From: Candidatus Uhrbacteria bacterium
Lineage (GTDB): Bacteria > Patescibacteriota > Patescibacteriia > UBA9934
DNA length: 64,000 nucleotides
Reading direction: 5' to 3'
Assembly (NCBI GenBank): GCA_018673485.1
Contig: JABHCP010000005.1
Coordinates: 64,102-128,101, forward strand
Shown here in pieces: positions 1 through 56,156 of the stretch. Within the stretch, counting starts at the first letter, position 1. Every line of letters starts with the position of its first letter. Made by a program: the position numbers and the translations under genes. The notes beneath the pieces are model-generated. The model did no database searches. It was not told the origin of the DNA and worked only from the letters and a program-made list of their open reading frames with translations.

Positions 1-138
1 GTGGCGCTTGAGAAAAAAGTCGAAGAAGTTGTCCATGTGATCCTCTGGTCTGTTGACCGGGGTGAAAGTCCACCAAAACCTAGAATCGAGTTCTAAACTT
101 TGGCGGACCCTGCGAGGTTCCATTGGTTCTCGCAGGAG

Positions 139-540: not shown

Positions 541-647
541 CGTATTCTCCTTGTGAAAGATGTTGGCCCATCAGTACTCACAATCTAGTTATGCGTATTG
601 ATAGGCCGCGGGGATATTGTCTCCCCGCTAGTTGAAGTGCAACCTCT

Positions 648-812
648 CTAGAGGTTTGAGGGCGGTCCCTTGCTACCGTGACCGGTGGCGCCGTGCCAGC
701 ATTCGCCGGCAATGTCGCTCAAGGGGAGGTTTCCGCTGAGCCACCACAGGATCAGGATCCCTGCAGTAAGGGTGACCTCACCCAGTGTGCGCAGCTTTTT
801 CTTCAGATTCAT
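648..812 (-). CDS. small hydrophobic peptide (54 aa, MNLKKKLRTLGEV...), start overlaps the stop of the upstream gene (ATGA)
   Basis: ggaggcgaaATG Shine-Dalgarno; single TM helix; translationally coupled to 809..1018. The ORF track extends it to 920, but the internal ATG with the Shine-Dalgarno is preferred. Confidence 0.4.
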   Translation of the reverse strand: MNLKKKLRTLGEVTLTAGILILWWLSGNLPLSDIAGECWHGATGHGSKGPPSNL

Positions 813-1018
813 TTCGCCTCCGGGCGATAGTTGTCGAAGCTGCTGGAAGTCCCCAGCAGTGCCTCTATGAAGAGAACAAATGGCCACAGGCCAGTGCAGA
901 TCAGGAAGATCTGAAAGCACTCGTGCTTGAGCCTTTTCCCCAGGATGGGGTTGATCGAGATCAGTCCTACGAGTAGGCCAATCGCGATCGAAAACTGGTC
1001 GCTAATGAATTTGATCAA
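809..1018 (-). CDS. small membrane peptide, 69 aa, TTG start
   Basis: aaaggagacatcTTG Shine-Dalgarno; two hydrophobic helices; conserved upstream element. Confidence 0.5.
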   Translation of the reverse strand: MIKFISDQFSIAIGLLVGLISINPILGKRLKHECFQIFLICTGLWPFVLFIEALLGTSSSFDNYRPEAK

Positions 1019-1107
1019 GATGTCTCCTTTGAACCATCGATACTCACAAGCTAGTTATGCGTATTGATGGGCCGCCGGTCTAGTGAAGACCGGCGAGGGG
1101 AGGGGTG

Positions 1108-1371
1108 TTAGAACTTGTGATAGATCAGCAAGCCCCAGCGAAACCAGACGCCCATGATGAATAGGGCAATGCTCGAGAGCACCGTGGTGCTGTTGAGCGG
1201 GTCGGGTTGCACGTTCATCGCTGAGGCGATGAACGTGTCGTACGCGATGGCGCCAACGGCGCCTAGGAGGGCACCGGCGATGCCGGCGAGCATGAAGGTG
1301 AAGAAGAGCATCACCAACTTCCTGTCAGTCGAATCGGTCGCGACTTCCATGGGGGGTGTGGTGTTGTCCAT
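1108..1371 (-). CDS. small membrane protein, 87 aa
   Basis: High-GC ORF; two TM helices; TTGACT-17-TATGCT promoter upstream (minus strand) at about 1400-1440. Confidence 0.5.
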   Translation of the reverse strand: MDNTTPPMEVATDSTDRKLVMLFFTFMLAGIAGALLGAVGAIAYDTFIASAMNVQPDPLNSTTVLSSIALFIMGVWFRWGLLIYHKF

Positions 1372-1473
1372 TTCAGCTCCAGCTTCAGCATCAGCGGCCC
1401 TTCATCACGATAGACTTCGCAATAGGACTGCTAAGACTAGCATAGAATTAAGCTCTTGTCAAGTCAAGGAGCC

Positions 1474-1499
1474 AAAAAATCGACTAACTTTAGTCGATT
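1474..1499 (-). terminator. rho-independent terminator after the PilB-like gene (aatcgactaaagttagtcgatttttt on the minus strand)
   Basis: Inverted repeat followed by a T-run, directly downstream of the pilB stop. Confidence 0.6.
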
Positions 1500-1511
1500 A
1501 TATCAAGTCAC

Positions 1512-1550
1512 GGCAACCCCCTCCTGCTCCCCCTTGGGAAGGGGGAGGGT
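1512..1550. repeat. GC-rich hairpin element GGCAACCCCCTCCTGCTCCCCCTTGGGAAGGGGGAG, copy 1 of 3
   Basis: Near-identical copies at 51964..52002 and inverted at 35819..35851. Stem CTCCCCC/GGGGGAG with loop TTGGGAA. Confidence 0.7.
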
Positions 1551-1557
1551 TTTAGGC

Positions 1558-3381
1558 TCAGAATCCAGTTACTCGTGCGATCTCTTCGATTGATGTTTGA
1601 CCTTCCATGGCTTTCAAGAGTCCGTCTTGGGCCATGCTAATCATTCCTTGGGCTGTTGCAACTTCTCGCATTTTGTATTCAGAAACGTCGCCTTCAAGAA
1701 TAAATTTTTCAACGTTTTGATCTTTTACTAAGACTTCATAAATTCCGACTCTGCCCTTGTATCCAGTTTTATTACACACTTCGCACCCCGCTCCCTTGAA
1801 AAACTTCATCGCTTCAGTCTTTGGTTTTGGTTCGCCAGAATTTTCTGGAATGGCGTCGAGGAGTTCTTTCACTTTTGCTAGCACATCAGGTTCGATTGTA
1901 TCTTCTTGCTTGCAACTTTCACACACTCGGCGAACCAAGCGCTGACCCATGATGGCATTCAAAGATGGCGCCAACAGAAAAGGCTTCACGCCCATAGCTG
2001 TGAATCTTGGAATGGCTCCAGCTGCATCGTTGGTGTGAATGGTTGAAAGGAGTAGGTGGCCGGTGAGTGACGCTTGGATTGCAGTTTCAGCAGTTTCCAA
2101 GTCGCGGATCTCACCAACGAGCACAATGTCCGGATCTTGTCGAAGTATTGAACGCAGGCCTTTTGCAAATGTATACTCCTTTGAGTGATCGATTTGGCTT
2201 TGGTTAATTCCTTTAAGTTTGTATTCAACCGGATCTTCAAGTGTAATAATTTTAACACCAGGTTTGTTGAGTCGCTTTAAGATTGCGTAGAGCGTAGTGG
2301 TTTTACCAGATCCAGTTGGTCCAGTTGTAATTACCATTCCATGTGGTTTTTCGATTTCCTTTGCTAGGCGCTCAAACGCTGCTTTTCGGAATCCAAGTTG
2401 TTCAAATTCAAGCTCAATTGCATCAGGGTTCAAGATTCGCATTACAACAGACTCACCCCAAGCAGTCGGCAGGGTAGAGGTACGTACATCGATCTTTTTA
2501 TCTTTTTGATAAATCGTAAATCGTCCGTCTTGTGGTTTGTCGGTGATGTTTAATTTCAGTCCCGCGATCAATTTAATTCGATTGATGATTTTTTTCCATT
2601 GAGAAACATCAAGATTAGCAACATCTTGGAGGATTCCATCTACTCGCAGTCGAACAGCGATACCTTTTTCTTCAGCTTCAATATGAATATCAGATGATCC
2701 AAGTTTAACAGATGCGGCTACTACAACTGCGAGCACATCAGTAATGCTTGCTTGCTTTAGTATGCTGTCAATATCTTTAAAACTTTCCATTTGGCTTTGA
2801 TATTGTTCAAGTTCTTCCGCTTTAATTTGCACACCTTTCACAATAGTACGAATTTTTGGGAGCGTACGATAAAGTTTGACTGCATGATCAAAAGAATCCT
2901 CAGTGATTTTATATAAAACTGCATTTGTTTTAAAACGTTCACCAATACCAAACGCTATCTGTTTGATATCTTCGTTTTCAGGGTTCACGCTTGCGATTCT
3001 AAGCTCCGGGCCGGTGTAGAGAAAAGCAATTGTTTTATTCTCGATTGCTTTTTTTTCAGGAATGAGTCGTAGTGCATCTGGGCTAATTGCAAAACCTACC
3101 AAGTTTATATAAGGGATTCCTTGAACCTTTGCTAGACCCTCAGCTTCTTTTTCTTTAGATCCGATTTCGATTTTTGCCATTTTACGATCAAGCTTTTGAG
3201 CTGGTGACATTTCTTCCAATGTTTTCCCCTTTAGCTCTTCCTTGATGGGTTCCGGATCGCTCAGTACCTTCGGTGCTGTACTTGGCTTGCTAGGTGTTTT
3301 GTTTGAATCAGAAACAGGGTCCTTCGCCGGAGCGCTGGACTGTTTTAGCAAATCTTCAATTGATGGCAACCCACCCGTCAT
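1558..3381 (-). CDS. pilB: type IV pilus assembly / type II secretion ATPase (PilB/GspE family)
   Basis: Walker A GPTGSGKTT, Walker B and His-box region typical of GspE; the C-terminal CxxC pair of the family is present. Confidence 0.9.
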   Translation of the reverse strand: MTGGLPSIEDLLKQSSAPAKDPVSDSNKTPSKPSTAPKVLSDPEPIKEELKGKTLEEMSPAQKLDRKMAKIEIGSKEKEAEGLAKVQGIPYINLVGFAISPDALRLIPEKKAIENKTIAFLYTGPELRIASVNPENEDIKQIAFGIGERFKTNAVLYKITEDSFDHAVKLYRTLPKIRTIVKGVQIKAEELEQYQSQMESFKDIDSILKQASITDVLAVVVAASVKLGSSDIHIEAEEKGIAVRLRVDGILQDVANLDVSQWKKIINRIKLIAGLKLNITDKPQDGRFTIYQKDKKIDVRTSTLPTAWGESVVMRILNPDAIELEFEQLGFRKAAFERLAKEIEKPHGMVITTGPTGSGKTTTLYAILKRLNKPGVKIITLEDPVEYKLKGINQSQIDHSKEYTFAKGLRSILRQDPDIVLVGEIRDLETAETAIQASLTGHLLLSTIHTNDAAGAIPRFTAMGVKPFLLAPSLNAIMGQRLVRRVCESCKQEDTIEPDVLAKVKELLDAIPENSGEPKPKTEAMKFFKGAGCEVCNKTGYKGRVGIYEVLVKDQNVEKFILEGDVSEYKMREVATAQGMISMAQDGLLKAMEGQTSIEEIARVTGF

Positions 3382-3383
3382 AT

Positions 3384-4373
3384 TTATTTGAGAAGTTTTT
3401 TAAGAGCGTGTTCGATTGCGGGGAAGTGCTCGTACCTGCTTAAGTGATCTGAAAGTTTTGTCCATGCACTGTAATTGAAGGTTGTAATTGCCCCAGCGTA
3501 TACAAGAATGATCGCCGCAGTGATTAGAAGTGATAGGAACGTAACTATCGACATTAGAATATATGATCCAACTGCAAGTGCTACCTCAAAGGCGATACCT
3601 GCTAAGATTGCGAAGCAGATTAAAGCGGTGAATAGTATTCCTGACGTAATGAAATTTATTACAAAAAGTATAAGTGCTAACTCAAACGCTGCTAACCAGT
3701 GATCGCGCAGTAGACTTGTGACATTGTTCATCATTTTACCTAAGCTCATATCCTTTTTGACAAGCTGTATAAGGCAGAGCATTCCAAATATTTGGACGAT
3801 GAACGCGAGTGGTAATGCGATGGTATATATGCCAACGCTCCAAATGGCATCGAGGAATAAGACATCTGTAATTAGCATTCCAAGAGCTAGCGTTGTCAGC
3901 CCGATGATGATAGTGAAGAGAATTCTCATCATTGCATTCACGCTAAACAGTCTTAGGACATGAATGTGATGTAATTTTTTACGAATCATTTTCCAGGTGA
4001 TGTTCTTTGTTCCTTTTGAGATTATAAATAGAAGAATGTATTGCGCCACCAAAGCAAAGAGTGCGATTAATACTAATATCGTAATCGATACAAGGATGTA
4101 TGCAATAAGGTGTGGAGTCTCTAAGAGCGTTAGATTACGAGCGTAGCTAAGCACCCATGAAAAGAATGGGCTGATTTGTTGGAGTGCTGTTGCGTTAAGC
4201 TCTGCCGCGGGTTGCAAGTTTAAGAAGGAACGAATGAGCATGTTAAAAATCGCGCCCGTATGTACGAGTCCGGCAAGTGCGGCGAGTGCCCACCACTCTT
4301 TTTGCGCAAGCGTGATCTCGCAAGCCTTCTTAATAATTTTTATGTAAGTATTCATCGATTTAGCAAGATTCAT
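3384..4373 (-). CDS. polytopic integral membrane protein, 329 aa, immediately upstream of pilB and co-directional
   Basis: Eight to ten hydrophobic helices; no recognisable catalytic motif. Confidence 0.6.
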   Translation of the reverse strand: MNLAKSMNTYIKIIKKACEITLAQKEWWALAALAGLVHTGAIFNMLIRSFLNLQPAAELNATALQQISPFFSWVLSYARNLTLLETPHLIAYILVSITILVLIALFALVAQYILLFIISKGTKNITWKMIRKKLHHIHVLRLFSVNAMMRILFTIIIGLTTLALGMLITDVLFLDAIWSVGIYTIALPLAFIVQIFGMLCLIQLVKKDMSLGKMMNNVTSLLRDHWLAAFELALILFVINFITSGILFTALICFAILAGIAFEVALAVGSYILMSIVTFLSLLITAAIILVYAGAITTFNYSAWTKLSDHLSRYEHFPAIEHALKKLLK

Positions 4374-4520
4374 ATTCCTCCAATTTAAGTTGCTTTCATT
4401 ATATCAAACAATTGACATTTCGGTTAAAATGTTGTATGTTTATTCACTGTTAGTTTGTAAGTGATAGAGTTACAAGTGTTAAAGGTAGCCTTTTATTGTT
4501 AAAACTAAACGATAGAATGC

Positions 4521-4535
4521 CGCTTTTAACAAAAG
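4521..4535 (+). repeat. 15-nt direct repeat gcttttaacaaaaga, left flank of the high-GC cassette
   Basis: Identical 15-mer recurs at 5279..5293 on the other side of the 4604..5200 ORF. Confidence 0.6.
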
Positions 4536-4603
4536 ACAAAATGATAAACGAGGGTGTGCCTCGGAATCAGTGCGTCGGCGGTTCAACTGTAAAGGAGGTT
4601 GTC

Positions 4604-5200
4604 ATGGCGGGTAACTACCCTGTCACAGGCGACCAGTATCGCGACATCGATCGTCGCATGTCCGAGATCAAGCGCCAGCTCAACCAGGACGAAGGTAGTC
4701 CGTCGGATCCTGTAAGAATCCTTCTGGCACTGCAGGGCATCGTTGAAGGCAACTTCGACAACGTGCCCGTTGAGCGTCTGCCCATCATCGACTGCGACGC
4801 CATGCCCTTCATCCCTAACGGTTGGAGTGCAGTAGAGCACCGCAAGGGTGGTCAGATCGAGTTCGATCCGAGCAAGATCGTCCTTCACCTGGAGTCGGAG
4901 CAGCAGCGTAGCACGATCGTTGGCAATGAGCTTCGCAAGCGACTCGAGGGCCAGCCTGTGATGAACGCCAACGTTCTTGATCATCTGCTTGCTAACACCC
5001 GTCTCATCCCCGAGGACTGGAAGGCCGATGAGCAGGGGCGTATCCGCTGCATCTACTTCTGGGGCACCATCTACCGCGACTCCGGCGGCCGCCTGTACGT
5101 TCGTTACTTGTGCTGGAACGATGGTCAGTGGCGCTGGTACTGCAGCTGGCTCGACGATCCGTGGGACAGTCAGCGCCCGGCTGCCATTCTCGCGAGTTAG
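4604..5200 (+). CDS. hypothetical protein (198 aa) in a high-GC cassette; Trp/Cys-rich C-terminus
   Basis: aaaggaggttgtcATG Shine-Dalgarno; GC content far above neighbours; no recognised motif. Confidence 0.55.
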   Translation: MAGNYPVTGDQYRDIDRRMSEIKRQLNQDEGSPSDPVRILLALQGIVEGNFDNVPVERLPIIDCDAMPFIPNGWSAVEHRKGGQIEFDPSKIVLHLESEQQRSTIVGNELRKRLEGQPVMNANVLDHLLANTRLIPEDWKADEQGRIRCIYFWGTIYRDSGGRLYVRYLCWNDGQWRWYCSWLDDPWDSQRPAAILAS

Positions 5201-5249
5201 GCACTTAGGGCTTTGTGACTTGGTTCTTTGTTCTCTAGTTCGTACTTGA

Positions 5250-5325
5250 CCGGCGCAACGTTGTTGTGTCGGTCTCTGCTTTTAACAAAAGAAGCGCGTT
5301 TACGCTTCTTTATTTGTTGAGTGAT
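5250..5325. repeat. about 75-nt boundary module: GC-rich hairpin gaccggcgcaacgttgttgtgtcggtc followed by terminator hairpin aaagaagcgcg-ttta-cgcttcttt
   Basis: About 80% identical copy at 7070..7145. Both lie between a high-GC plus-strand ORF and a low-GC minus-strand gene. Confidence 0.7.
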
Positions 5326-6084
5326 TTACTTCAGTGGTTTGGACATTTTCCACAAGAAATCAAAATATTGTTTGTGGTACTTGGCGATTTCTTTACTACG
5401 AATCGTTGTGCCGATTGGTTGGCTTGTCCAAAGTACAAAGTCCACCTTATCATCGCGTATTTGCATACCCGCAACAGAGGCAAAGTCTGCTGGAAGGATA
5501 CGGACTTTTGTAAAAGGCATATCCTTAATTTGTTCTGCTCGTTTCATTGATCCTTTTGGAAAGATAAAACGTGCTGGTATCTCACGTTGTATGCGTCGCC
5601 TGTGAAAGTCTGCAAGTACAGTTGGAATAAATTCTTTGATGGTTTGTGCATCTTCTGCAAATCCTCCAATAACGTAAAATGTTCCTTTGGTACTAAGCGC
5701 ATCCTCAAATAATGTTTTTAAACCACGCTTGCCCTTGTAGTGAAATACCTCCTGATCTTCTTTGGAGAGCTTTCGCTTTGCCTCGAGCGCAGGGATTATC
5801 TTATTCAATTCTTTTTCTTGAGCCTCAAGCTCTTCTTGTTTTCTTTCAATTACTTTTTTGAGTCGCTTTGGAGTTACCGCTTCAAAGTATTTAGTGTTCG
5901 ACATGATTACATTTGAGACAAGCCCCTTTTTCGCTAGGGAACCAAGACAATCATAAACCTGACCTCGAGAGAGGTTGGTTTTGGAGATAATGTCCTTAGT
6001 CGTCACAGACCCAAGCTCAAGGAGGTTGAGATAGATCGTCGCCTCATTGCCTGTTAGCCCGATTTTCTTTAGAAGTTCTTTCAT
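5326..6084 (-). CDS. TrmB-family transcriptional regulator (N-terminal wHTH)
   Basis: N-terminus GLTGNEATIYLNLLELGSVTTKDIISKTNLSRGQVYDCL matches the TrmB HTH; low GC, native. Confidence 0.7.
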   Translation of the reverse strand: MKELLKKIGLTGNEATIYLNLLELGSVTTKDIISKTNLSRGQVYDCLGSLAKKGLVSNVIMSNTKYFEAVTPKRLKKVIERKQEELEAQEKELNKIIPALEAKRKLSKEDQEVFHYKGKRGLKTLFEDALSTKGTFYVIGGFAEDAQTIKEFIPTVLADFHRRRIQREIPARFIFPKGSMKRAEQIKDMPFTKVRILPADFASVAGMQIRDDKVDFVLWTSQPIGTTIRSKEIAKYHKQYFDFLWKMSKPLK

Positions 6085-6196
6085 ATATTGATTGTCATAC
6101 TACTCCAAGACGACAAGTTTGTCAATGATTCAAGGCTTTGATATCTTTCCAGGCTCGTCCCTTAACAACCGAGCAAAGAAGATGGGAGAGGAAAGC

Positions 6197-6865
6197 ATGT
6201 GTACTAAAAATCAAAATCCTTTCGAGCAGACGGTTGAGGAGCAGCTCGCTGCGCTTCGTCGTCAGAACAAACTTGGTAGTTGGGGCATAGAGGAGAGCGT
6301 ATTTGCACGTCTTGCCAAGACCGCTCCCGAGTGGCCAGAAGGGCGTGATGCTTATAGGAGTTTTCGTATTCGTTTTGGTGAGGGACGTGATGGTGTCATC
6401 AAGACCTTCGAGGCGCATGTCAATGCAGTTAAACATACTCATGACAATTTCTGGCGTTGGAATGGTTTGCTCTCTGGAGAGCATCCGTTCCTTGGAAAGC
6501 AAATAGACCGTCTGCGATTGCTGGCCGGCAATGGCAGTCATGCACCCATGATAGAGTGGATCATTATTCCCGACCTGTCGGCCAACCTGGGACATGGTTC
6601 AATCAACTCCGTACGTGGGGTAAAGTCTCTTGCAGATGCAGGACTTGTAGTGATTTGGCTTGTACCTGACCGGGTGCGTGCGATTGATTATAAAGAGTGG
6701 TGTGCATGGTTCCTTGCTGGCTATGAGGTGAATGAACCCAGAGATTATGTCCAATGGTGGACAAGTGTACCGTGCGTTCAATATAGCCCCCACACGGGGA
6801 CGGGTTTGCAAACTTGGTTGCGTTGCTATCCCAATCCAGGTTTTGCGGCGCCATCAGGCATATAG
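6197..6865 (+). CDS. hypothetical protein in a high-GC cassette, Trp-rich; possibly continued by frame 0 to 7016 through a frameshift
   Basis: ggagaggaaagcATG Shine-Dalgarno. The high-GC coding signal continues in another frame (6732..7016) up to the boundary module. Confidence 0.5.
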   Translation: MCTKNQNPFEQTVEEQLAALRRQNKLGSWGIEESVFARLAKTAPEWPEGRDAYRSFRIRFGEGRDGVIKTFEAHVNAVKHTHDNFWRWNGLLSGEHPFLGKQIDRLRLLAGNGSHAPMIEWIIIPDLSANLGHGSINSVRGVKSLADAGLVVIWLVPDRVRAIDYKEWCAWFLAGYEVNEPRDYVQWWTSVPCVQYSPHTGTGLQTWLRCYPNPGFAAPSGI

Positions 6866-7069
6866 TCTTTGGGGTCGCAACGTCCTTGAAGATCGCGATG
6901 AGTCGTGGAAGCACGTGGTGATCGTCAGCCGTGATCTGCGTGGTTACATGACAAGTCTAACAGCCCGCTTACGTAGTAATGTTTGTCCGTATTACCAAGT
7001 ACCCTCGTTTGAGTAGTATTGTCCGCGAGTGATATAATTGATAATACTTAAAACTTACCCGCTTTCTCA

Positions 7070-7145
7070 GACTGGCGTGACGTTGTTGCGTCGGTTTTTG
7101 TTTATATCAAAAGAAGCGCTTTCGCGCTTCTTTATTTGTTGAGTG
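7070..7145. repeat. about 75-nt boundary module, copy 2; also serves as the ftsH terminator
   Basis: See 5250..5325. Confidence 0.7.
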
Positions 7146-7147
7146 GG

Positions 7148-9043
7148 TTACTCCTTTGACTCTGTAGCTTTTGGTCCCATGAGCTCTTCGAATCTTTCTT
7201 TCTCGATAGTTTCTTTCTCCAGTAGTTCTGCAACTGTATTTTCTATCTTGTCTTGGTTTTCTTTAATCACCTTGTTTGCAGTTTCGAGTGCTTCGCTTAC
7301 TAGTCGTAGGATCTCTTCATCGATTAGTTGAGCGGTATTCTCGGAATAGTTGCGTCTGTCTTTGATTTCCTTTCCAAGGAACACTAGGTCTTCTCGTTCT
7401 CCGTATGTTCGTGGTCCCATTTTTTCACTCATTCCGTATTGAGTGATGAGGTTTTGTGCGAGTTTTGTTGCACGTTGCAAATCATTTGATGCACCAGTAG
7501 TAATGTCACCAAAAGTTGATTTCTCAACTGCGTACCCGGCAAGCATCATAGCGAGCTCATCGATAAATTCTGCACGGAAGTGCATCTTGCGGTCCTCACT
7601 TGGCAAACTCATTGTGTAACCAGCAGCTCGCCCGCGTGAGATTATTGATATCTTGTGCACGTCATCACAGTGCGGAAGCATGTGGCCAACAATCGCGTGT
7701 CCTGCCTCATGGTACGCAGTAATTTTCTTTTCTTTTTTAGAAAGGATGCTGCTCTTGCGCTCAGGTCCGAGCATAACTTTTTCAATAGCGTCCAAAATGT
7801 TCTTTTGTGCAATAATTTTTTTGTTGTGGCGTGCTGCGAGAATCGCACCTTCGTTCATGATGTTCATCAGGTCCGCTCCAGAGAATCCAACAGTACGTTC
7901 GGCAACGCGTTGAAGATCAACGCTTTCCTCGAGCGGTTTGCCTTTGGCATGAATTTCAAGAATCGCTTTTCTGTCTTTAAGTCCTGGGAAGTCAAGAGTG
8001 ATTCTTCGATCAAATCGTCCAGGTCTCAAAAGCGCTGGATCAAGTACGTCTGGTCGGTTGGTTGCGGCGATTACGATAATTCCGTTGTTTGGAGAGAACC
8101 CATCCATTTCTACCAAAATCTGGTTTAGTGTTTGCTCACGTTCATCATTTCCACCACCAAGCCCGGCGCCACGCTGACGTCCAACTGCATCAATCTCATC
8201 AATGAATACTATGCACGGTGATGCTTTCTTTGCTTTTGTAAATAAGTCACGCACACGTGATGCTCCAACTCCAACAAACATTTCTACAAACTCGGATCCG
8301 GAAATGTGGAAGAAGGGAACATTGGCTTCTCCTGCCACAGCTCTTGCGAGCAGTGTTTTACCAGTTCCTGGAGGACCCATCAGCAAAACTCCTTTTGGAA
8401 TTTTTGCTCCTACCTCTGCATACTTTTTTGGATGCTTTAGAAAGTCGACAACCTCAGTTAGTTCTTCTTTTGATTCTGCTTCTCCGGCCACGTCCTTAAA
8501 TGAAACACGATCTTTTTTACTAGTTACTTCTTTTGCTTTTGACTGACCAAATGTCATGGCCTTGTTGTTCGCTCCTTGCATTTGATTGATCAGGAACCAG
8601 AAGATTACCAAGAAACCAATTAGGAAAATCAGTGTTGGCAAAATTGATCGCAATAGTGAGATCCACATACTTGGCTCGACAACCTGAATGTTTACCGCTG
8701 AGAGTTCCTCACTAGTGATTCCGTAATTGGTAAGTAAATCAGAAAGTGATTCACCAGACTCTTTTTTTACTTCAAACTCAGTTTCATCAAGCGCGAAGAT
8801 CTTTAGTGTATTTTCCTCGATTTCAATGCGGTCGATTTCTTGATTGGTAATTTTCTCAACAAGAGTACTTGTACCGATTACTTCCGGTTCATCGCCGTTA
8901 AGGTTATATGATGAAAAAATGACTCCCAATGCTAATACGACAAGGAAGAAAATGATTAAGTTTTTTGATAGTGGCTTCATAGGTATTATAGTTATAGCGT
9001 CCTTTAGCGCCTGCATGATGCCAAAAAACAGGGGTTTTGGCAA
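7148..9043 (-). CDS. ftsH: ATP-dependent zinc metalloprotease FtsH
   Basis: N-terminal TM helices; AAA Walker [27 protein letters not shown] region; HEAGHAIVG zinc motif. Confidence 0.95.
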
Positions 9044-9120
9044 CCTTGATTAAAATGCACTTAATAAAGCAAGAGACACCCGGGGTGGGGTGTCGAGACG
9101 TGGGGCCGTTTGGTGGCTGG

Positions 9121-9396
9121 CTAGGTTGCCAGGTAGAGTTTGGCCCTATTTGCGTTGAGCTTGAAGCCACGGGAGAGAACGCCAAATACCTTGATGAGAA
9201 TCGCCGAGACGAGCAGGGTGCTTACCATGAAGCCGACAGTCGTGATTACCAGCGCTGGGTCGGCTTGTTGGATGACCATTGGGCTCATCAGTCCGATGAG
9301 GGCGAGTACGCCAATGACAACGCTTGTGCTGGTCGCGTAGACCGCGATGCTCACAAAGAGGCATAGGCCATCGATAATTTGGTTTGTGCGGTTCAA
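9121..9396 (-). CDS. small membrane protein (91 aa), TTG start, high-GC island
   Basis: aaaggagcgcaccTTG Shine-Dalgarno; two or three TM helices. Confidence 0.45.
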   Translation of the reverse strand: MNRTNQIIDGLCLFVSIAVYATSTSVVIGVLALIGLMSPMVIQQADPALVITTVGFMVSTLLVSAILIKVFGVLSRGFKLNANRAKLYLAT

Positions 9397-9883
9397 GGTG
9401 CGCTCCTTTGCAAATGTGAGGTATAGGCTGAATCCTTATTCAAATCATACCTCACTTTTGCAGACCAGGAAACTTAGCAGGAATGGGAGATTATGTCAAC
9501 CGTCTACGATGTATCTCATCTTTTTCAGCATTAGCCCTATTGGGGGTATTTCATCCCCCAAACCCCCTGACATACTTTCTTTGTTGGCTCAAAGAAAGTA
9601 TGCAAAGCCATGGCGGAGCCAGGTCCGGCTCCGCCGGAAAAAAGCCTTTTCAGAGTGTCCCACGGCCGCAAAGAATGATGCGGCCTGCAGTCAATGTTTT
9701 TTGGGTGACCATGAATGGACTGATTGCCAGTTCGGTCGGCAGGCTCCTTCTCAGACGGGGTGATTTGACAATGAATGAACGGGGGGCTAACTACTGAAAC
9801 ATTGCCGGGGGACTTGGATTGAAGAAATAAAAAGCAAAAGAACCGCCTTGGGGCGGTTCTTTTTAAGGTCTTGGATTCTGCGA

Positions 9884-11278
9884 TTACTCAGCCTTCGCTT
9901 CTTCTGTTTTTTCTACTTCAGCTTCAGCTGGTGCTTCAGTCTTTGCATCGTCGGCAGGAGCCTCTACTTCTGCCTCGGCTGGAGTTTCAGTCGCTTCAGA
10001 TGTTTCGGAAACCTCTTCCTTAACCTCCGCAACCTCTTGAGATCCCTCCTCCTTCGCTAAAGCTACGGCGGACAGGTCGGCTTCGCTCGGGATGACGGCT
10101 TCTGGAATACTATTATCCGCTACCGTCACCTTTTCTTCCTTTACAACCTCTTCTGCCTTTACCGCCTTCTTCTCTTCCAGTGCTCTTAGAGAAAGTCCTA
10201 GTCTGTGTTCTTTTGGTTCGATTGATACAATCTTGAACTTTAGCACCTCACCTGACTTTGCAACCTTTGAAGGGTGGTCAACAGGGGATTCTGAAAGTTC
10301 TGAAATGTGAGCTAGTCCATGAATGTCTTTATCAAGCTCCACAAAAAGTCCAAATGGGTTGCTCTTAAGTACTGTTCCTTCAACAACATCACCAATCTTG
10401 TACTTTGTTTCAACATCAGCCCATGGGTCAGTCTTTAGCTTCTTCATTGAAAGGAAGATCTTGCTTCCATCTATTCCAATAATTTCAGCCTTTGCAGTTT
10501 CACCTGCTTTTAGAAGATCTCGTGGGTGATCAATTCTTTGCCATGCAATTTCCGAGATGTGAACCAATCCTTCGAGTGCGCCACTTGCGTCTGATCCTGA
10601 TGGAATGAACTTTACGAAAGCTCCAAAGTCGGCAAGTGCTGTGATTTCACCCTCAACAACGTCTCCAACGTTGATCTGTGAAATAACATTCTTTTGCTCT
10701 GACTCCCAAATTGTCTTTTCTGAAACAATTAGCTTTTCATCATCTATGTTCATGTCTAGAATCTGTACTCGCATTTTCTTACCAACAAAGCTTTTAAGCT
10801 TGTCGAGAATCTTTCCTTTATCACCACCGCTAACACGTGGGTAGTTTTCAGGAGCGAGTTGTGAAACAGGAAGGAATCCAGTGACGTGTCCAAGCTGAAC
10901 GATAAGTCCACCTTTGTTTGCGTCGAGAACTTTAACCTCAACTGGTTCGTTCTTTTGGAATTGTTCCTGCATGTCTTCCCATGCTTTCTTGTTACCAGCA
11001 AAACGGAATGAAAGTTCCATTTCTCCATTTTCATTTTCAAGGTCAACTACAGTTGCCTCTACTTTGTCTCCACGCTTTATGTTTCCGTAAGTTCCACCCT
11101 CGGTGAAAAGCTCACGACCTCGTACAACACCAGTAGTTAGTCCATTGATATCCAAGCGCACCTCACGTCCTTTAATAGATAAAACGGTGGCCTCAATCAG
11201 CGCACCGAGCTCGGGGACGTTGAGATACTGATCATTTTCCAATAAAGCGGAAAGCTGTGAATTCTGTGTATCTGTCAT
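9884..11278 (-). CDS. rpsA: 30S ribosomal protein S1 (four S1 domains) with an acidic Glu/Ala/Lys-rich C-terminal tail
   Basis: Repeated S1 OB-fold motifs (G.V.G.V..I..FGAFV, GLVHISE / GLAHISEL). Confidence 0.9.
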   Translation of the reverse strand: MTDTQNSQLSALLENDQYLNVPELGALIEATVLSIKGREVRLDINGLTTGVVRGRELFTEGGTYGNIKRGDKVEATVVDLENENGEMELSFRFAGNKKAWEDMQEQFQKNEPVEVKVLDANKGGLIVQLGHVTGFLPVSQLAPENYPRVSGGDKGKILDKLKSFVGKKMRVQILDMNIDDEKLIVSEKTIWESEQKNVISQINVGDVVEGEITALADFGAFVKFIPSGSDASGALEGLVHISEIAWQRIDHPRDLLKAGETAKAEIIGIDGSKIFLSMKKLKTDPWADVETKYKIGDVVEGTVLKSNPFGLFVELDKDIHGLAHISELSESPVDHPSKVAKSGEVLKFKIVSIEPKEHRLGLSLRALEEKKAVKAEEVVKEEKVTVADNSIPEAVIPSEADLSAVALAKEEGSQEVAEVKEEVSETSEATETPAEAEVEAPADDAKTEAPAEAEVEKTEEAKAE

Positions 11279-14301: not shown

Positions 14302-14331
14302 AGTACGCAGTTCACAGTGCTCAGTATGCAG
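14302..14331 (+). repeat. tandem heptamers agtacgcag-ttcacag-tgctcag-tatgcag between stop codon and terminator
   Basis: Same architecture after gyrA, trxA and fusA. Confidence 0.6.
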
Positions 14332-28388: not shown

Positions 28389-28430
28389 AATGTTTCACAT
28401 AAGCGACGATCGTCGCTTATGTGAAACATT
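28389..28430. repeat. 42-nt perfect palindrome aatgtttcacataagCGACGATCGTCGcttatgtgaaacatt between two terminators
   Basis: Related copy at 46164..46201 with compensatory changes in the middle arm. Confidence 0.7.
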
Positions 28431-28509
28431 TAGAGATTGAAAAACCGACCCACGTGGGGCCGATTCTTTTTATATTTATTTTAACTCTACCCCTCGACGG
28501 GCTCGGGAC

Positions 28510-30670: not shown

Positions 30671-31396
30671 TCATGCTTGCCCCTTTTCGTCAATCACATC
30701 AATTTCAAGCTTTTTTACCAAGTTCTGCCAAGTTTCAGAATTAATCTGATCCATCTCGAGTGCATCGGAAACGTTGAAGTCGCCGATCTTTGATCTCCGT
30801 AGTGCGCGGCAGTAGCCTGTAGTGTTGAGTTTTTGAGCTAAGTCGCGCGCGAGTGCTCGAATGTAGGTGCCACTTGAGCATTGAATGCGGACTTCAAGGA
30901 TTAGCTGACCATTTTCTTTTTCAATGTCACTGATAAGTCTAAAATCCTCTATTCGAACTGGTCTTGGCTTGCGTTCGATTTCCTCACCCTTGCGAGCCAT
31001 TTTATATAATCGTTGACCACCGACTTTAATAGCGGAATGCATTGGGGGGATTTGTTTTATATCACCGATAAGTTCTTTCATTACCGTATCGATCTGTTCG
31101 TGTGTGATCTCTGGCATATTAGTATCGACCACTACTTCAGTTTCTGTGTCCAGGCTGTCAGTTGTAGCACCCAGTACAAACTCTGCAATGTATTCTTTTC
31201 CGAGCCCCATGAAGGAGTCGATTTGTTTTGTTGCGTCGCGGCCAATTGCAACTATCAAAAGACCAGTAGCAAATGGGTCAAGCGTTCCTGCGTGACCAAT
31301 TTTTTTGATTTGCGTAATGTTGCGTAATTTTGCAACAACGTCAAAGCTAGTCCACTCCTGTGGTTTATTGATTAGAAGAAATCCTGAGTTTGTCAT
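30671..31396 (-). CDS. truB: tRNA pseudouridine(55) synthase TruB
   Basis: GHAGTLDPFATGLLIVAIG catalytic motif. The N-terminal extension in the ORF track is rejected (see noticed_but_rejected). Confidence 0.85.
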   Translation of the reverse strand: MTNSGFLLINKPQEWTSFDVVAKLRNITQIKKIGHAGTLDPFATGLLIVAIGRDATKQIDSFMGLGKEYIAEFVLGATTDSLDTETEVVVDTNMPEITHEQIDTVMKELIGDIKQIPPMHSAIKVGGQRLYKMARKGEEIERKPRPVRIEDFRLISDIEKENGQLILEVRIQCSSGTYIRALARDLAQKLNTTGYCRALRRSKIGDFNVSDALEMDQINSETWQNLVKKLEIDVIDEKGQA

Positions 31397-31433
31397 ATAA
31401 TCGGAGTATAGATCGAAATAAAAGAATTTACTA

Positions 31434-31540
31434 CCCATCCAGAGGAGCCTAAAGGCGACGAAGGACCCCGTGCGTAATGATCGAACGTTGATCAATCTAC
31501 GGGATTCCTCACTCGCTTTGCTCGTTTCGGAATGGGGGAG
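31434..31540 (+). ncRNA. about 105-nt structured element, copy 1, ending at the Shine-Dalgarno of the pilin-like gene
   Basis: cccatccagaggagcctaaaggcgacgaagga...acgggattcctc...cggaatggg. P1 CCCAUCC/GGAAUGGG, P2 GAGGA/UCCUC, internal hairpin GCCUAAAGGC. Second copy at 34726..34830. Confidence 0.45.
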
Positions 31541-31544
31541 GCAT

Positions 31545-32036
31545 ATGAACAAACCACGAGGTTACACGATCATCGAAGTTATTGCAGCGGTTTTTGTTGT
31601 CGCGATGATTTTATTGATCGGCATCATTGTCGCGAATCCGAAAGACTCACTCGAAGGTGCATATCGCGAGCAGCAGCTCGATGGTGTGCGTGATTATATG
31701 GAAGTCATGTTAGGGCTTGAAATATCCGACCCCGATTTGTTTTATGAGATTGCACTGCAGGTGGAAGGTGAGAAGAAGATGATCGGAATGGGGCAGGGGT
31801 GCGATGGTTCTTTTGGGGATCAGTGCGAGGATGCTGAGCTATCAGATACTTGCTTGGATATTCAAAATTATTTACCCGAAGGGTTTTTGGAGGAATTACC
31901 TGTTGATTTATCAAATACAACATTTTCACGCGTCCGGACAGGATATTACATGTTATATGAGGATGATGTGCTCGAAGTCGGAGTCTGCGACCCCTCTGGT
32001 GCTGAAAGTGTAAGATTGATGAGTTTGATTCGATGA
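31545..32036 (+). CDS. type IV pilin / pseudopilin-like protein with an N-terminal prepilin motif
   Basis: MNKPRG-YTIIEVIAAVFVV matches the G/(F,Y)TLIE class III signal; gggggaggcatATG Shine-Dalgarno. Confidence 0.65.
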   Translation: MNKPRGYTIIEVIAAVFVVAMILLIGIIVANPKDSLEGAYREQQLDGVRDYMEVMLGLEISDPDLFYEIALQVEGEKKMIGMGQGCDGSFGDQCEDAELSDTCLDIQNYLPEGFLEELPVDLSNTTFSRVRTGYYMLYEDDVLEVGVCDPSGAESVRLMSLIR

Positions 32037-32068
32037 TTAAAAATCGAGGTCTGATCTCGTTTTTTTGT

Positions 32069-32100
32069 TTCACATTTGTCCCGATCGGGACAAATGTGAA
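32069..32100. promoter_or_regulatory. 32-nt perfect palindrome ttcacatttgTCCCGATCGGGAcaaatgtgaa upstream of the infB promoter (TTGACA-17-TATCCT)
   Basis: Same CCGATCGG core as 19444 and 19548. Confidence 0.5.
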
Positions 32101-32177
32101 AAATATGACTGGGCTCTGGAGTCTGTCGTCTGACCTCTGAAATTGACATTTTTCCCTAATTTTCGTATCCTTGCGCC

Positions 32178-34205
32178 ATGAATATCTCAGAATTAGCACG
32201 AAGATTACGAATCTCCACCGACGAGCTTAGAACCAAATTGCCTGAGCTCGGTTTTGATATTGGAGCCAAGGCCATCAAGATCCCAGATCGAGAGGCTGGA
32301 AGGATCCAATACGCATGGCGTCAGTATCAGAAACGTAAGTTTTTGGCAGGTAAACGTGATGAGCAACGCGCAAGAGCTGAGCGAAAACAAATGGTTGTAG
32401 AAGGAACTGCGCAGAAGATTTTTCTGCCAAACGCTATTACTGTGCGAGAGTTTGCAGATAAGGTGGAGATGCCGATTGCAAAGGTAATGCAAGAACTAAT
32501 GCGTGCAGGAATTTTGGCATCATTAAACGAACGAATTGACTTTGACAGTGCAGCAATTATCTCAGCTGATCTCGGATTCATTGCTGAGCAGGAAGATGCA
32601 GAGGCAAAAGCAGCTGATGAAGAGGGAATGGAAAAACTTGAAGGAATACTTGCCGATCAAGAAGGTGCACAGCCGCGACCGCCAGTTATTGTTGTTATGG
32701 GTCACGTTGACCACGGTAAGACAAAGTTGCTCGACGCTATTCGAGACACAAATGTAATTGATACCGAGCATGGTGGAATCACTCAGCACATCGGTGCTTA
32801 CCAAGTGGTGCGCAATGATCGTGAACTTACTTTTATTGATACTCCAGGACACGAAGCTTTTACAGTGATGCGTTCTCGTGGAGCAAAAGTTGCCGACATC
32901 GCAATCATTGTTGTGGCAGCTGACGACGGAGTGAAGCCACAGACTCGTGAGGTAATCGATATCGTGAAGGCTTCAAAGATGCCGTTTATTGTAGCGATCA
33001 ACAAAATAGATAAAGAGAATGCGAATATAGACATGGTAAAGAGCCAGCTCTCAGAGTTTGGGCTTATTCCAGAGGACTACGGTGGTGACACGGTGATGGT
33101 TCCAATCTCTGCAAAGCAAGGACAGAACATTGATCAGATTTTGGATATGTTGATCCTTGTAGCTGACATGGAAAAGGATAAGATCGTTGCTAATGCTGAC
33201 CGTAGAGGCATCGGAACAATTATTGAATCAAGAGTTGATAAGGCTCGTGGTCCAGTTGCGACAGTTCTAGTTCAGTCTGGAACATTAAAGTTAGGCAATG
33301 CAGTTGGTGTACGTGGTGCAGGTTACGGAAAAGTTCGTGCAATGCAGACTTGGGATGGTAAGGATATTAAAGAAGCAAAGCCATCAACTCCAGTTAGAAT
33401 TTTAGGATTTAAAGCAGCGCCTTCCATTGGAGACGTAATGGAAGTTCCAGAAGATCCAAAGTCACTTGAAAAGCTAAAGTCACAACCAACGCGTAAAGCA
33501 GGAGCAGATGAGATGCGAGTTCATACGTCGCAAGCCGAAGTTGGGACAGATGACGAGAATGATGGAGACAAGAAGGTAATGCTAAACATTATTATTCGCT
33601 CAGACGTACTCGGATCACTCGAAGCTGTACTTGGAATGATCGAGAAGATTGACAACCCTCATGTTGGAGTTAAGGTGATTTCCAAGGGACTTGGAAACGT
33701 AACTGATGCCGATATTATTAGTGCGGAAGCTGCAAAGGCGTGGGTGTTTGCATTCAATGTTAAACCACCGAGCGCTGTAGCAATGCTTGCACGTGAGAAG
33801 GATGTAAAGTTAAGCGAGTACACTGTTATTTACAAACTATTTGAAGATTTGGTAGAGCGCCTTCGTATTCTTATTCCTGCCGAGCAAATTTACACAGAGC
33901 TCGGAGCGGTCGAGATTCTTGCAACATTCCAAAAAATAGCAAAGGGAATGATTATTGGAGGAAAGGTAACCAAGGGTATTATTGCAGTCGGCGCCACAGC
34001 TCGTGTTGTGCGAGAAGAGGAAGTAATTGCCGAGGGAAAGATTAATAGCTTGCAGATGGGTAAGATGGATGTGAAGGATGTAGAGAAGGGTAACGAATGT
34101 GGAATTGAGTTTACTGGAAAAGCAAAGATCGAACCCGGTGACATACTCGAGATTTACCGCGAAGAAGAAAAGGCTCGAACACTCGAGGTCGAAGGATCTA
34201 AATAA
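32178..34205 (+). CDS. infB: translation initiation factor IF-2
   Basis: G-domain [21 protein letters not shown]. Confidence 0.95.
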
Positions 34206-34353
34206 GAGATTTATCAAAACCGCGCCTTATGCGCGGTTTTGTGTTTCAAGGTTGAACCTCTAGAGGCTCAACCTTGAACGAGAAAGTGTCTATTTATTGT
34301 CAATCTCATGCTATGTGGTAAAATACCTCTCGTCGATTCATAAATATAAAACT

Positions 34354-34665
34354 ATGGAGTTAACAACAGACAGCTTTGATGAAAAAGTTTTGCAAGCAGA
34401 TGGTCTTGTATTGGTAGATTTTTGGGCAGAGTGGTGTGGGCCTTGTAAGATGATGAGCCCGATCGTTGATGAGCTTGCCAGTGAGCTTGATGGAGTGGTG
34501 GTAGGAAAGGTGAATGTTGATAACGAACCAGATCTAGCGCGACAATTTAATATTCTTTCAATTCCAACATTTATAATTTTCAAATCAGGACAGGTCGTTG
34601 AGCAGTTCTCAGGATCAATGAATAAAGAGATGCTAAAGGAGAGAATTGGAAAGCACATGGAGTAG
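34354..34665 (+). CDS. trxA: thioredoxin
   Basis: WAEWCGPCK active site. Confidence 0.9.
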   Translation: MELTTDSFDEKVLQADGLVLVDFWAEWCGPCKMMSPIVDELASELDGVVVGKVNVDNEPDLARQFNILSIPTFIIFKSGQVVEQFSGSMNKEMLKERIGKHME

Positions 34666-34696
34666 CAGTACGCAGTGCTCAGTTCACAGTATGAAG
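34666..34696 (+). repeat. heptamer CAG repeats (cagtacgcag-tgctcag-ttcacag-tatgaag) after the trxA stop, before the terminator
   Basis: Same heptamers as at 14302, in a different order. Confidence 0.55.
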
Positions 34697-34725
34697 GAGT
34701 CGGCCAAAGTCGGCTCTTTTTTGTG

Positions 34726-34830
34726 CCCATCCAGAGGAGCCTAAAGGCGACGAAGGATCTCGTACATTGCCGATCGAACGTCGACGTAAACAACGGGATT
34801 CCTCGCAGAGCTCGGAATGGGTGGCGAGGG
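34726..34830 (+). ncRNA. about 105-nt structured element, copy 2, in the trxB leader
   Basis: See 31434..31540. The first 32 nt are identical; the stems are conserved and the loops vary. Confidence 0.45.
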
Positions 34831-34882
34831 GAGTGGATAAATCGAGCAAGGTAAGATCTTCTTGTGATAAAATAACTCACGT

Positions 34883-35806
34883 ATGGAAAAACGTCGATTG
34901 ATTATTGTTGGATCCGGTCCGGCCGGGTATACAGCTGCTATTTACGCTGCACGAGCTGATCTGCAGCCGCTTTTATTTACTGGCATTCAACCAGGTGGGC
35001 AACTCACAACGACAACTGACGTTGAGAATTGGCCCGGCGAGGTTGAGGGTATTATGGGCACGCAGCTCATGGAGAATCTTAAGGCACAGGCTTTGCGGTT
35101 TGGAACTGAGGTGGTGGACGCCACTGTTGCTGATATCGATTTGAGTGTTAGACCGTTTAAGATGAAAACTGAGCAGGGTGAGTATGAAGCTGATGCGGTG
35201 ATTGTTGCCACAGGTGCTTCTGCAAAGTGGTTGGGAGTTCCTGGCGAGGATAATCTAAAGGGTAAAGGAGTTTCAGCGTGCGCGACATGTGATGGTTTCT
35301 TTTTCCGTGATAAAAAAATAGTCATGGTCGGTGGAGGTGACTCTGCAATGGAAGAAGCAATTTTCTTAACTCGATTTGCTGAGACTGTGACCGTGCTAGT
35401 ACGACGTGATGAGTTGCGAGCTTCAAAGATCATGCAAAAGCGAGCAATGGATAATTCAAAGATTAAGTTTTTGTGGAATACGGAAACCAAGGAATTAATC
35501 GGAACTGATAAGTTGGAATCGGTTAAGGTTTTGAATAATAAAACTCAAGAGGAGACAGACGTTCCGGCTGATGGATTTTTTGTGGCCATTGGTCACAAGC
35601 CTAATACAGATTTTCTTAACGGTCAGATCGAATTGGATGAGAATGGTTATATTAAAAATATCCCAGGAACTTCAAAGACAAGCCTGGAAGGTGTATTTGC
35701 CTGTGGTGACGTGATTGATCCGTGGTACCGTCAAGCAATAACCTCAGCGGGTACAGGCTGTATTGCGGCACTCGACGCTGAGCGGTGGTTAATTAATCAG
35801 GAATAG
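34883..35806 (+). CDS. trxB: thioredoxin-disulfide reductase
   Basis: GSGPAGYTAAIYAARA FAD motif; CATCDGFF redox-active disulfide. Confidence 0.9.
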   Translation: MEKRRLIIVGSGPAGYTAAIYAARADLQPLLFTGIQPGGQLTTTTDVENWPGEVEGIMGTQLMENLKAQALRFGTEVVDATVADIDLSVRPFKMKTEQGEYEADAVIVATGASAKWLGVPGEDNLKGKGVSACATCDGFFFRDKKIVMVGGGDSAMEEAIFLTRFAETVTVLVRRDELRASKIMQKRAMDNSKIKFLWNTETKELIGTDKLESVKVLNNKTQEETDVPADGFFVAIGHKPNTDFLNGQIELDENGYIKNIPGTSKTSLEGVFACGDVIDPWYRQAITSAGTGCIAALDAERWLINQE

Positions 35807-37195: not shown

Positions 37196-37350
37196 TGATT
37201 CTATCGATTCGATTCCCCCTACTTTTTAAGGAGGGGATAGGGGTGGTTATTAAATAGTTTCATTTAAAAAAGCAACAATCCCGGACATTCAAGTCCGGGA
37301 CACGACTGACACCGCGAGGGTCAGTTTTTGATATTGTAGGTCGCGCGCTA

Positions 37351-46164: not shown

Positions 46165-46201
46165 GTTTCACTAACTCGACGATCGTCGAGTTAGTGAAAC
46201 C
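46164..46201. repeat. 38-nt perfect palindrome ggtttcactaactCGACGATCGTCGagttagtgaaacc directly after the stop codon
   Basis: Related to 28389..28430. Confidence 0.7.
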
Positions 46202-46272
46202 TTGTGTGCTTGATTGTTTTGTGTATTATTGCTATATTTCGGGCGAAAATAATGTGAAATTAAATATATTTT

Positions 46273-51841: not shown

Positions 51842-51963
51842 GTGTACCTCAGGGTTGGGGGGAAGAGCAGTTTTGCGAACAGAGCAATGTAGCCTAATTT
51901 TAGCATAAAGTCAAGGGAATGCTAGCGGTACTCGTAGGGTCGATAGGATAGCCGAAAAGTGCC

Positions 51964-52002
51964 GGCAACCCCCTCCAGCTCCCCCTTGGGAAGGGGGAGA
52001 GT
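51964..52002. repeat. GC-rich hairpin element, copy 3 (ggcaaccccctccagctcccccttgggaagggggag), upstream of rpsL
   Basis: See 1512..1550. Confidence 0.7.
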
Positions 52003-55225: not shown

Positions 55226-55230
55226 AAATA

Positions 55231-55263
55231 GTACGCAGTTCGCAGTGCTCAGTACACAGACAG
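55231..55263 (+). repeat. heptamer CAG repeats (gtacgcag-ttcgcag-tgctcag-tacacag-acag) after the fusA stop
   Basis: See 14302. Confidence 0.55.
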
Positions 55264-55837: not shown

Positions 55838-56156
55838 GGATAGACCTAGTTCTAAAAGATCTTTCAGCGCTCCGCTCTCATGCGGGCGCTTTTGCTTCTA
55901 TGAAAATATTTTTCATTAAGGTCGCGATCGGCCCTTTAGTGAAAAATATTCATGCTTCAAATGTGTAACGATCGCGTCAAATGTGAAGCATGAAGAAAAA
56001 AAGTTTTCCACACTTTGTTTTTGATTTTTGAGTTAACTTTATACAATGAATAGTGCTGACTGGGTCAATGTAGTGGGAAAACCCTTGCTGGGGTTTATTG
56101 TCAAACAGGCCAACGTGGCAGTGGTAGGGTTCAACCCAGCGATCTAGGAGGTCGTT

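Follow-up and report, generated by a model that had tools for sequence, protein, structure and literature searches.

In a stretch of 64,000 nucleotides (nt) from a contig of a Candidatus Uhrbacteria bacterium, hereafter called the window, two copies of an element of approximately 105 nt lie in front of a gene for a prepilin-like protein and in front of the thioredoxin reductase gene trxB. This raises the question of whether the element is a structured RNA in the leaders of these genes or a DNA repeat that was inserted next to them. A sequence-only reading of the locus had offered a novel cis-regulatory RNA, a family of small RNA genes, or something like a miniature inverted-repeat transposable element (MITE). 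We consider it highly probable that the elements are inserted doublets of Ssn-related DNA hairpin repeats, which are paired with a resident homologue of the nuclease SsnA and act at the DNA level, and that they are not ligand-sensing RNAs.

The two copies are indeed located at 31434-31540 and 34726-34830, both on the plus strand. They have an identical 5' end of 32 nt (CCCATCCAGAGGAGCCTAAAGGCGACGAAGGA), which occurs exactly twice in the 64 kb even if three mismatches are permitted, with no occurrence expected by chance (100 shuffles). The segments GATCGAACGT and ACGGGATTCCTC and the GCCTAAAGGC hairpin are likewise found in both copies, and the letters of the inner stem GAGGA/TCCTC are present. 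Each element is composed of a spacer with a hairpin unit on either side, the two units being inverted relative to each other, and each unit follows the same grammar, namely a leader CCC, a short palindrome (ATCC..GGAT or ATTCC..GGAAT) and then a C. The general form of the 5' unit is CCC-ATCC-[AGAGGAGCCTAAAGGCGACGAA]-GGAT-C and that of the 3' unit, on the other strand, is CCC-ATTCC-[loop]-GGAAT-C. In copy 1 (31434..31540), which sits between the -10 box and the ATG of the pilin-like gene, the 5' unit (31434..31467, plus strand) reads CCC-ATCC-[AGAGGAGCCTAAAGGCGACGAA]-GGAC-C, with one A.C mismatch in the outer stem pair and an inner GCC-TAAA-GGC hairpin, and the 3' unit (31503..31536, minus strand) reads CCC-ATTCC-[GAAACGAGCAAAGCGAGTGA]-GGAAT-C, with a perfect stem of 5 bp. 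In copy 2 (34726..34830), between the trxA terminator and the trxB promoter, the stem of the 5' unit (CCC-ATCC-[...]-GGAT-C, 34726..34759, plus strand) is perfect, and the 3' unit (34797..34821, minus strand) reads CCC-ATTCC-[GAGCTCTGCGA]-GGAAT-C.

A comparison of 11 doublets, i.e. 22 units, revealed a perfect local stem in about 20 of the 22, maintained by compensatory changes, with five complementary variants (ATCC/GGAT, ACCC/GGGT, ACTC/GAGT, ATTCC/GGAAT and ATCCC/GGGAT); for the 5' unit of copy 1 the distal GGAT was taken automatically in this count, whereas its local partner GGAC gives the one mismatch. A C follows directly after the palindrome in 20 of the 22 units. The sequence-only reading had also described a conserved closing stem CCCATCC/GGAATGGG between the two ends of the element. 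Its letters are there in both copies, but the 4-bp core of this putative long-range pairing is perfect in only 2 of the 11 doublets. As far as these doublets tell, the closing stem arises merely because two hairpin units stand in inverted orientation.

The decisive context is invisible in the window, because an ssnA-type gene lies approximately 2 kb outside of it, and tblastn for such a GIY-YIG gene within the 64 kb found none. The gene encodes a single-domain GIY-YIG protein of 97 amino acids and is located on the same contig between tsaD and tsaE, 1.9-2.3 kb before the first base of the window. The linkage follows from the overlapping locus L129, in which positions 4394-9180 equal window 1-4787 at 100% identity and the gene occupies 2128-2421. 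The exact protein (P0121, MBT3230994.1) is recorded under Candidatus Uhrbacteria bacterium, as is a TrxB with 100% identity, and in both assemblies the NCBI protein accessions of the two proteins are 41 numbers apart, with the GIY-YIG protein first. The gene and its two flanking units are oriented on the same strand as both window copies. On its 5' side there is a forward unit (L129 2084-2121), whose 32-nt block (2084-2115) is identical to that of the window copies and is followed by TCCCGT, and on its 3' side there is an inverted unit CCC-ATCCC..GGGAT-C (L129 ~2424-2470). The gene is thus flanked by the repeat on both sides, which is the repeat-gene-repeat layout of an Ssn system.

Such a system, consisting of a site-specific nuclease for single-stranded DNA (ssDNA) and multicopy hairpin repeats, has been described by Chenal et al. 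(Nat Commun 2025, PMC11893778). SsnA is a single-domain GIY-YIG protein of 94 amino acids (CDD family cd10448) that recognizes the Neisseria NTS hairpin CGTCATTCCCGCGMAVGCGGGAATCYRG exclusively in single-stranded form and is inactive on double-stranded DNA and on RNA. It cuts a few nucleotides upstream of the hairpin; cleavage is dependent on the 3 nt that precede the palindrome, whereas for binding it is above all the C behind the palindrome that matters (PMC11893778). Homologues of ssn across phyla are flanked by "Ssn-related motifs" (SRM) of 20-50 nt, the system limits transformation by NTS-bearing DNA in N. meningitidis, and the authors likened the arrangement NTS-ssnA-NTS to an insertion sequence and to REP/RAYT systems (PMC11893778).

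P0121 contains GIY-YIG (PF01541, E = 6e-17) as its only Pfam domain. It is 47.8% identical over 90 residues to an open reading frame (ORF) of N. gonorrhoeae (tblastn E = 4e-19, BLASTP 3e-29), which lies below the tblastn threshold of E < 1e-10 that Chenal et al. used for SsnA homologues (PMC11893778), and the tblastn search hit a single place in two chromosome-sized N. gonorrhoeae records. This gonococcal ORF is surrounded by eight canonical NTS repeats that fit the published SRM pattern, and the repeats upstream of it form plus/minus pairs approximately 80 nt apart (L218). A search of NCBIfam with P0121 returned no family, and the nearest PDB chain is a distant one (1zg2, UPF0213 protein BH0048, E = 2e-6). 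The locus L218 corresponds to NZ_CP119142.1, positions 1880219-1883488, and in this strain stop codons interrupt the ssnA frame shortly before the conserved VYILAS start region; the two chromosome-sized records (2.17 Mb) are filed as plasmids.

The likeness to the Ssn/SRM systems comprises a single-domain GIY-YIG protein of about 95 residues, 48% identical to the Neisseria homologue, encoded between two repeats. It extends to the repeat itself, with its oriented leader, its palindrome bounded by AT at either end and the C directly behind it, and to additional copies without an ORF in intergenic DNA. One could object that the elements are ordinary MITEs moved by a DDE-type transposase encoded elsewhere, and that the GIY-YIG gene landed in one of the copies or is a homing endonuclease that targets the repeat. 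Terminal inverted repeats and presence/absence polymorphism would fit this, and in the ssnA copy the ORF does sit in the loop between two units. We nevertheless judge this explanation to be improbable, as a target-site duplication is seen at neither site, as far as the diverged flanks allow, the gene and its flanking covarying hairpins recur around homologues in many phyla and in Neisseria, and the gene behaves as a resident single-copy gene. P0121 is encoded in 13 contigs, always between tsaD and tsaE, and a relative with 85% identity (L057) has kept the gene at the same place before tsaE.

The recurrence of the gene with its hairpins is based on a survey of 80 homologous genes from named genomes of many phyla, with 243 kb of surrounding DNA. 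These flanks carry hairpins of the type GTCATTGCGAGGAG...GACGAAGCAATC with a CCC or GTC leader, and 418 leader-plus-hairpin units were found compared to 49 in shuffles, again with covarying stems. A scan of metagenomes with GAGGAGCCNNNNGGCGACGAAGG gave 119 loci in three groups. The first is a close subfamily that starts with CCCATCCAGAGGAGCC (L023, L029, L050, L057, L068, L071, L072, L093 and L109), the second a related and very widespread form, GTCATCCTGAGGAGCC....GGCGACGAAGGATC, behind which its reverse complement is often found, and the third consists of chance matches in GC-rich coding DNA; a collection of genome contigs scanned with CCAGAGGAGCCNNNNGGCGACGAAGGA gave 0 matches. Between the two arms of the element, L072 and L057 contain an ORF that starts with MHDDYHFVYIMTN and encodes a 97-residue GIY-YIG protein, and variant units adjoin GIY-YIG ORFs in L022, L105 and L106. 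In other contigs of the Candidate Phyla Radiation (CPR) a variant unit, CCCTGAGGAGCC....GGCGACGAAGGG, was seen not only next to GIY-YIG ORFs but also directly adjacent to tRNA genes (L022 ~330-400 and L106 ~5140-5250, both as reverse complement).

If the elements are insertions, related genomes should differ in their presence. The loci with exactly the same TrxB are of the same strain only and all carry the element, hence they offer no empty sites. We therefore used orthologous loci identified by diverged TrxB homologues, namely L124 and L125 (87% identity), L126 (89%) and L127 (75%), which all share the gene order RNase Y - truB - pilin - ... - infB - trxA - trxB - gdh. None of the four has copy 1 in the truB-pilin spacer, which is only 24-41 nt long there and contains a conserved CATATAAT with the ATG approximately 19 nt further on. 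Since this spacer is short and free of the element in all four related loci, copy 1 is an insertion specific to the lineage of the window, located between the -10 box and the ATG. In the trxA-trxB spacer the element is absent in L124/L125 and L127, i.e. in two of three lineages, and an orthologous copy is present in L126. This orthologue has retained 25 of the 25 bases of the 5' loop block, and its stem has changed from ATCC/GGAT to ACCC/GGGT; the spacer shows many changes and the long inner helix is lost. Because the unit stems and the loop block are kept and the spacer and the long helix have diverged, selection, or gene conversion, appears to act on the single units rather than on the overall RNA fold.

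L126 also carries an additional full doublet after gdh, where the window has no full copy. At the corresponding place (37196..37246, plus strand, 51 nt) we noticed a possible decayed remnant with the 3' junction GGGTGG|TTATTAAATAG in common with L126, although this match is weak and tentative. Between trxA and trxB, L126 has approximately 0.6 kb of extra DNA (L126 9297-9800 versus window 34666-34882), which contains a called DUF5320 gene (9297-9497) and then a further apparent ORF directly upstream of the orthologous doublet.

The genes around the two copies encode TruB, on the minus strand, a prepilin-type protein (Pfam N_methyl), thioredoxin and thioredoxin reductase. Both copies do lie immediately 5' of plus-strand genes, as had been noted at the outset, but only copy 1 can be regarded as part of a leader. 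A TATAAT -10 box of the pilin-like gene (31396..31401, plus strand) overlaps the truB start codon on the other strand and is conserved in the relatives, where it lies approximately 19 nt from the ATG. Since this box lies upstream of copy 1, the copy would be inside the present 5' untranslated region (UTR) of the pilin-like gene. As described before, copy 1 ends in the Shine-Dalgarno sequence of this gene: the run GGGGGAGG (31534..31541, plus strand) is located at the 3' edge of the copy, 3-4 nt before the ATG at 31545, and is predicted to function as such. The relatives have no such run, and judging from their spacers the run now ahead of the start codon was brought in by copy 1.

The situation is different for trxB. 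Copy 2 begins 4 nt past the T-run of the trxA terminator and ends 52 nt before the trxB ATG (34883), so that its placement right after the terminator and before trxB was correctly seen. The terminator (GAGTCGGC-CAAA-GTCGGCTC followed by T6, 34697..34722, plus strand) was identified by direct reading; a simple scan did not list it. Its hairpin is conserved in L124 and L126. Downstream of copy 2, an extended -10 box TGATAAAAT (34865..34873, plus strand) is located 9 nt before the trxB ATG, and the sequence TGTGMTAAAAT is conserved before trxB in the window, L124 and L126. Hence trxB is most likely transcribed, as a near-leaderless mRNA, from a promoter of its own that follows copy 2, and because copy 2 lies upstream of this conserved promoter element, it would be outside of the trxB leader. 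No Shine-Dalgarno sequence is present in front of trxB (34865-34885), and the pilin-like gene of the relatives, with its TATAAT approximately 19 nt before the ATG, likewise has none, which suggests leaderless mRNAs or mRNAs with very short leaders in this lineage. A dispersed repeat of 30 nt, AGTACGCAGTTCACAGTGCTCAGTATGCAG, occurs at 14302-14331, 34667-34696 and 55230-55259; its copy at 34667 begins one base past the trxA stop codon, just upstream of the trxA terminator.

These observations bear directly on the proposal that the element is a cis-regulatory RNA, a riboswitch or another leader RNA, which controls the pilin-like gene and trxB. The position of both window copies upstream of plus-strand genes speaks for it, as does the RNA of copy 1, which abuts a Shine-Dalgarno sequence and folds significantly better than its shuffles (z = -3.9); for copy 2 the value is marginal (z = -1.6). 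However, a leader RNA should occupy the orthologous 5' UTRs, and instead L124-L127 have empty sites, with no copy 1 in any of the orthologous pilin leaders. Copy 2 lies between a terminator and the conserved extended -10 box of trxB, related copies elsewhere start 2-24 nt past the stop codon of the upstream gene and sometimes ahead of a terminator, and in L071 the interior of the element is inverted relative to the arms. Covariation is found in the local stems of the units and not in the long-range stems that a leader RNA would require. The Rfam covariance models gave nothing that overlaps either copy at the gathering score or at E ≤ 10, in line with the initial remark that no known riboswitch class was recognized. 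RNAalifold on the two copies provided no informative covariation, from an alignment of two sequences only. Taken together, a regulatory RNA of this kind is very improbable. An attempt to derive the functional strand from counts of G:U versus A:C pairs was dropped, since the doublet is quasi-symmetric and G:T pairs are also tolerated in DNA hairpins.

Even less probable is the reading as a small-RNA gene family. Conservation of the 5' block and the difference in sequence between the two strands of the element could be taken to favor it, but the simple scan shows no promoter-like site within the copies or ahead of them, the terminator next to copy 2 stands at its 5' end with none following at its 3' end, and the spacer is poorly conserved. 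It is somewhat more plausible, although still unlikely, that the element is a DNA element in the first place and that single copies were co-opted as RNA. Copy 1 would then supply, and perhaps occlude, the ribosome-binding site of the pilin-like gene, and the copies after stop codons would stabilize the 3' ends of mRNAs. In favor of this, the insertion of copy 1 between the conserved -10 box and the start codon has replaced a 19-nt leader without Shine-Dalgarno sequence by one with GGGGGAGG, a G-rich 3' end is likewise found ahead of tsaE in L129 and ahead of the following gene in L068, and the good fold of the copy 1 RNA would fit as well. On the other hand, the effect would be incidental to one insertion, and copy 2 has no such relation to a gene.

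We thus return to the pairing of hairpin doublets with an SsnA homologue, against which several observations have to be weighed. The RNA fold of copy 1 makes an RNA-level structure possible. Nearest-neighbour folding of the single window units as ssDNA predicts no stable hairpin (z of about 0 versus shuffles), the 4-bp stem of the 5' unit has to close over 22 nt, and for the whole doublets as ssDNA the z-values are -1.75 (copy 1) and 0.05 (copy 2). A target-site duplication was sought and not found, and there was no cleavage signature either. Inverted ends are present and no direct repeat is visible at the two junctions, the flanks being too diverged for base-exact junctions. The designation "multicopy" is thin, as three copies are documented in this genome, for which approximately 66 kb of the contig were scanned; a related contig of 83 kb (FLOH01000511.1) has four, and all of these doublets are intergenic. 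Finally, the published SRM search sequence, HGTCWYN(0-2)YYVSBRHN(0-5)WNVSBRGN(0-2)RNCYNB, has 0 matches in the window copies, 0 in the ssnA flanks and 0 in the flanks of the 80 homologous genes; the same sequence found the eight NTS repeats in L218.

The last point is mirrored by true differences from the canonical units. The leader is CCC instead of GTC, and the stem of 4-5 bp encloses a loop of 11-22 nt with its own small hairpin, which is far longer than the published pattern allows. Moreover, the host belongs to the CPR/Patescibacteria, a group without mention in Chenal et al. (PMC11893778), and few copies are documented. We thus appear to be dealing with a clade of Ssn/repeat pairs that is missed by the published search sequence, yet represents the same kind of system.

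Other repeat families share single aspects of the doublets. REP/REPIN-RAYT systems (PMC3116915, PMC3337134) also feature inverted doublets of short palindromes, non-autonomous intergenic copies, a gene that is present once, is inherited vertically and has the same repeats on its flanks, and a proposed recognition of ssDNA hairpins. They differ in that the enzyme here is a GIY-YIG nuclease and not an HUH/Y1 (IS200/IS605-like) transposase, and in that there are no GTAG/CGTC tags. The neisserial dRS3/NIME repeats resemble the doublets as inverted pairs of hairpin repeats that enclose a spacer of approximately 50-100 nt, and the NTS pairs approximately 80 nt apart in L218 fit this picture. However, their sequences are others and the doublets described here are isolated, while dRS3/NIME arrays comprise hundreds of copies in clusters. 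MITEs such as Correia, ERIC and RUP can act as a source of promoters or ribosome-binding sites, and their transcripts can form RNA hairpins. With a length of approximately 100 bp, terminal inverted repeats and insertion polymorphism, the doublets are similar to these, and of the three initial proposals the MITE-like element came closest. The insertions agree with it, but neither a target-site duplication nor a parent element with a DDE transposase was seen.

Binding and cleavage of the units by the nuclease, the mechanism of their spread and their biological role are what we infer from these comparisons. By homology with the characterized Neisseria and Wolbachia enzymes, the nuclease would recognize a unit only in ssDNA, by the hairpin together with the 3-nt leader and the C after the palindrome, and would cut one strand a few nucleotides upstream. 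The doublets without an ORF entered the intergenic DNA of this lineage on separate occasions, copy 2 before the split from the L126 lineage and copy 1 more recently. They might serve as target sites of the nuclease, maybe modulating recombination of incoming or replicating ssDNA, or they might be selfish, REPIN-like repeats. It would be a side effect that the pilin-like gene now has copy 1 in its 5' UTR and takes its Shine-Dalgarno sequence from there.

Some further repeats of the window should be mentioned. A separate SRM-like unit, GTC-ATCCC...GGGAT-C, is located at 10042..10096 on the minus strand, in frame within the acidic C-terminal tail encoded by the gene of an S1-domain protein (9884-11278, minus strand). 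It translates as ..AVIPSEADLSAVALAKEEGSQ.., and part of its loop, GTCCGCCGNAGCTTTAGCGAAGGAG, also occurs in the 5' unit of the L126 doublet after gdh. Near-perfect intergenic palindromes of the form GTTTCAC(n)..CGATCG..(n)GTGAAAC were found at 28392-28440, 46165-46213, 55954-56002 and 32066-32104, one of them following the pilin-like gene; these may function as terminators in both directions or be bound by a protein. C-rich/G-rich hairpin repeats (CCCCCTCC..CCCCCTTGGGAAGGGGGAG) at 1505-1550 and 51957-52002, together with a similar hairpin at 37212-37240, form a small dispersed palindrome family. Finally, local direct repeats of 40-83 nt with 82-91% identity, spaced 0.5-1.8 kb apart (5248-5330/7070-7152, 11386-11461/12432-12507, 12372-12410/13445-13483 and 563-619/1029-1085), suggest tandemly duplicated genes or intergenic segments.

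For the locus itself, the consequence is that the element should not be chased as a new riboswitch class. Beyond that, the pairing of an Ssn protein with SRM-like repeats would be extended to the Patescibacteria, the published SRM pattern overlooks a large clade of repeats, namely the hairpins with a CCC or GTC leader that occur at hundreds of homologous genes of many phyla, and a new pair of nuclease and site could serve ssDNA tools. It is conceivable, though rather doubtful at present, that the SRM doublets are actively mobile, REPIN-like replicators in the streamlined CPR genomes, with the resident SsnA moving or copying them by way of ssDNA hairpins. Ssn is not known to carry out transposition. 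If the doublets are mobile in this way, the filled and empty sites would be the first comparative evidence of an Ssn system that spreads its own repeats, and the neighbouring genes would be rewired by it, for instance when a pilin gene receives its ribosome-binding site from a doublet, in a lineage dependent on the uptake of DNA. In any case, the dated insertions among near relatives, together with the changes that keep the stems, bear on whether Ssn repeats are mobile and under selection.

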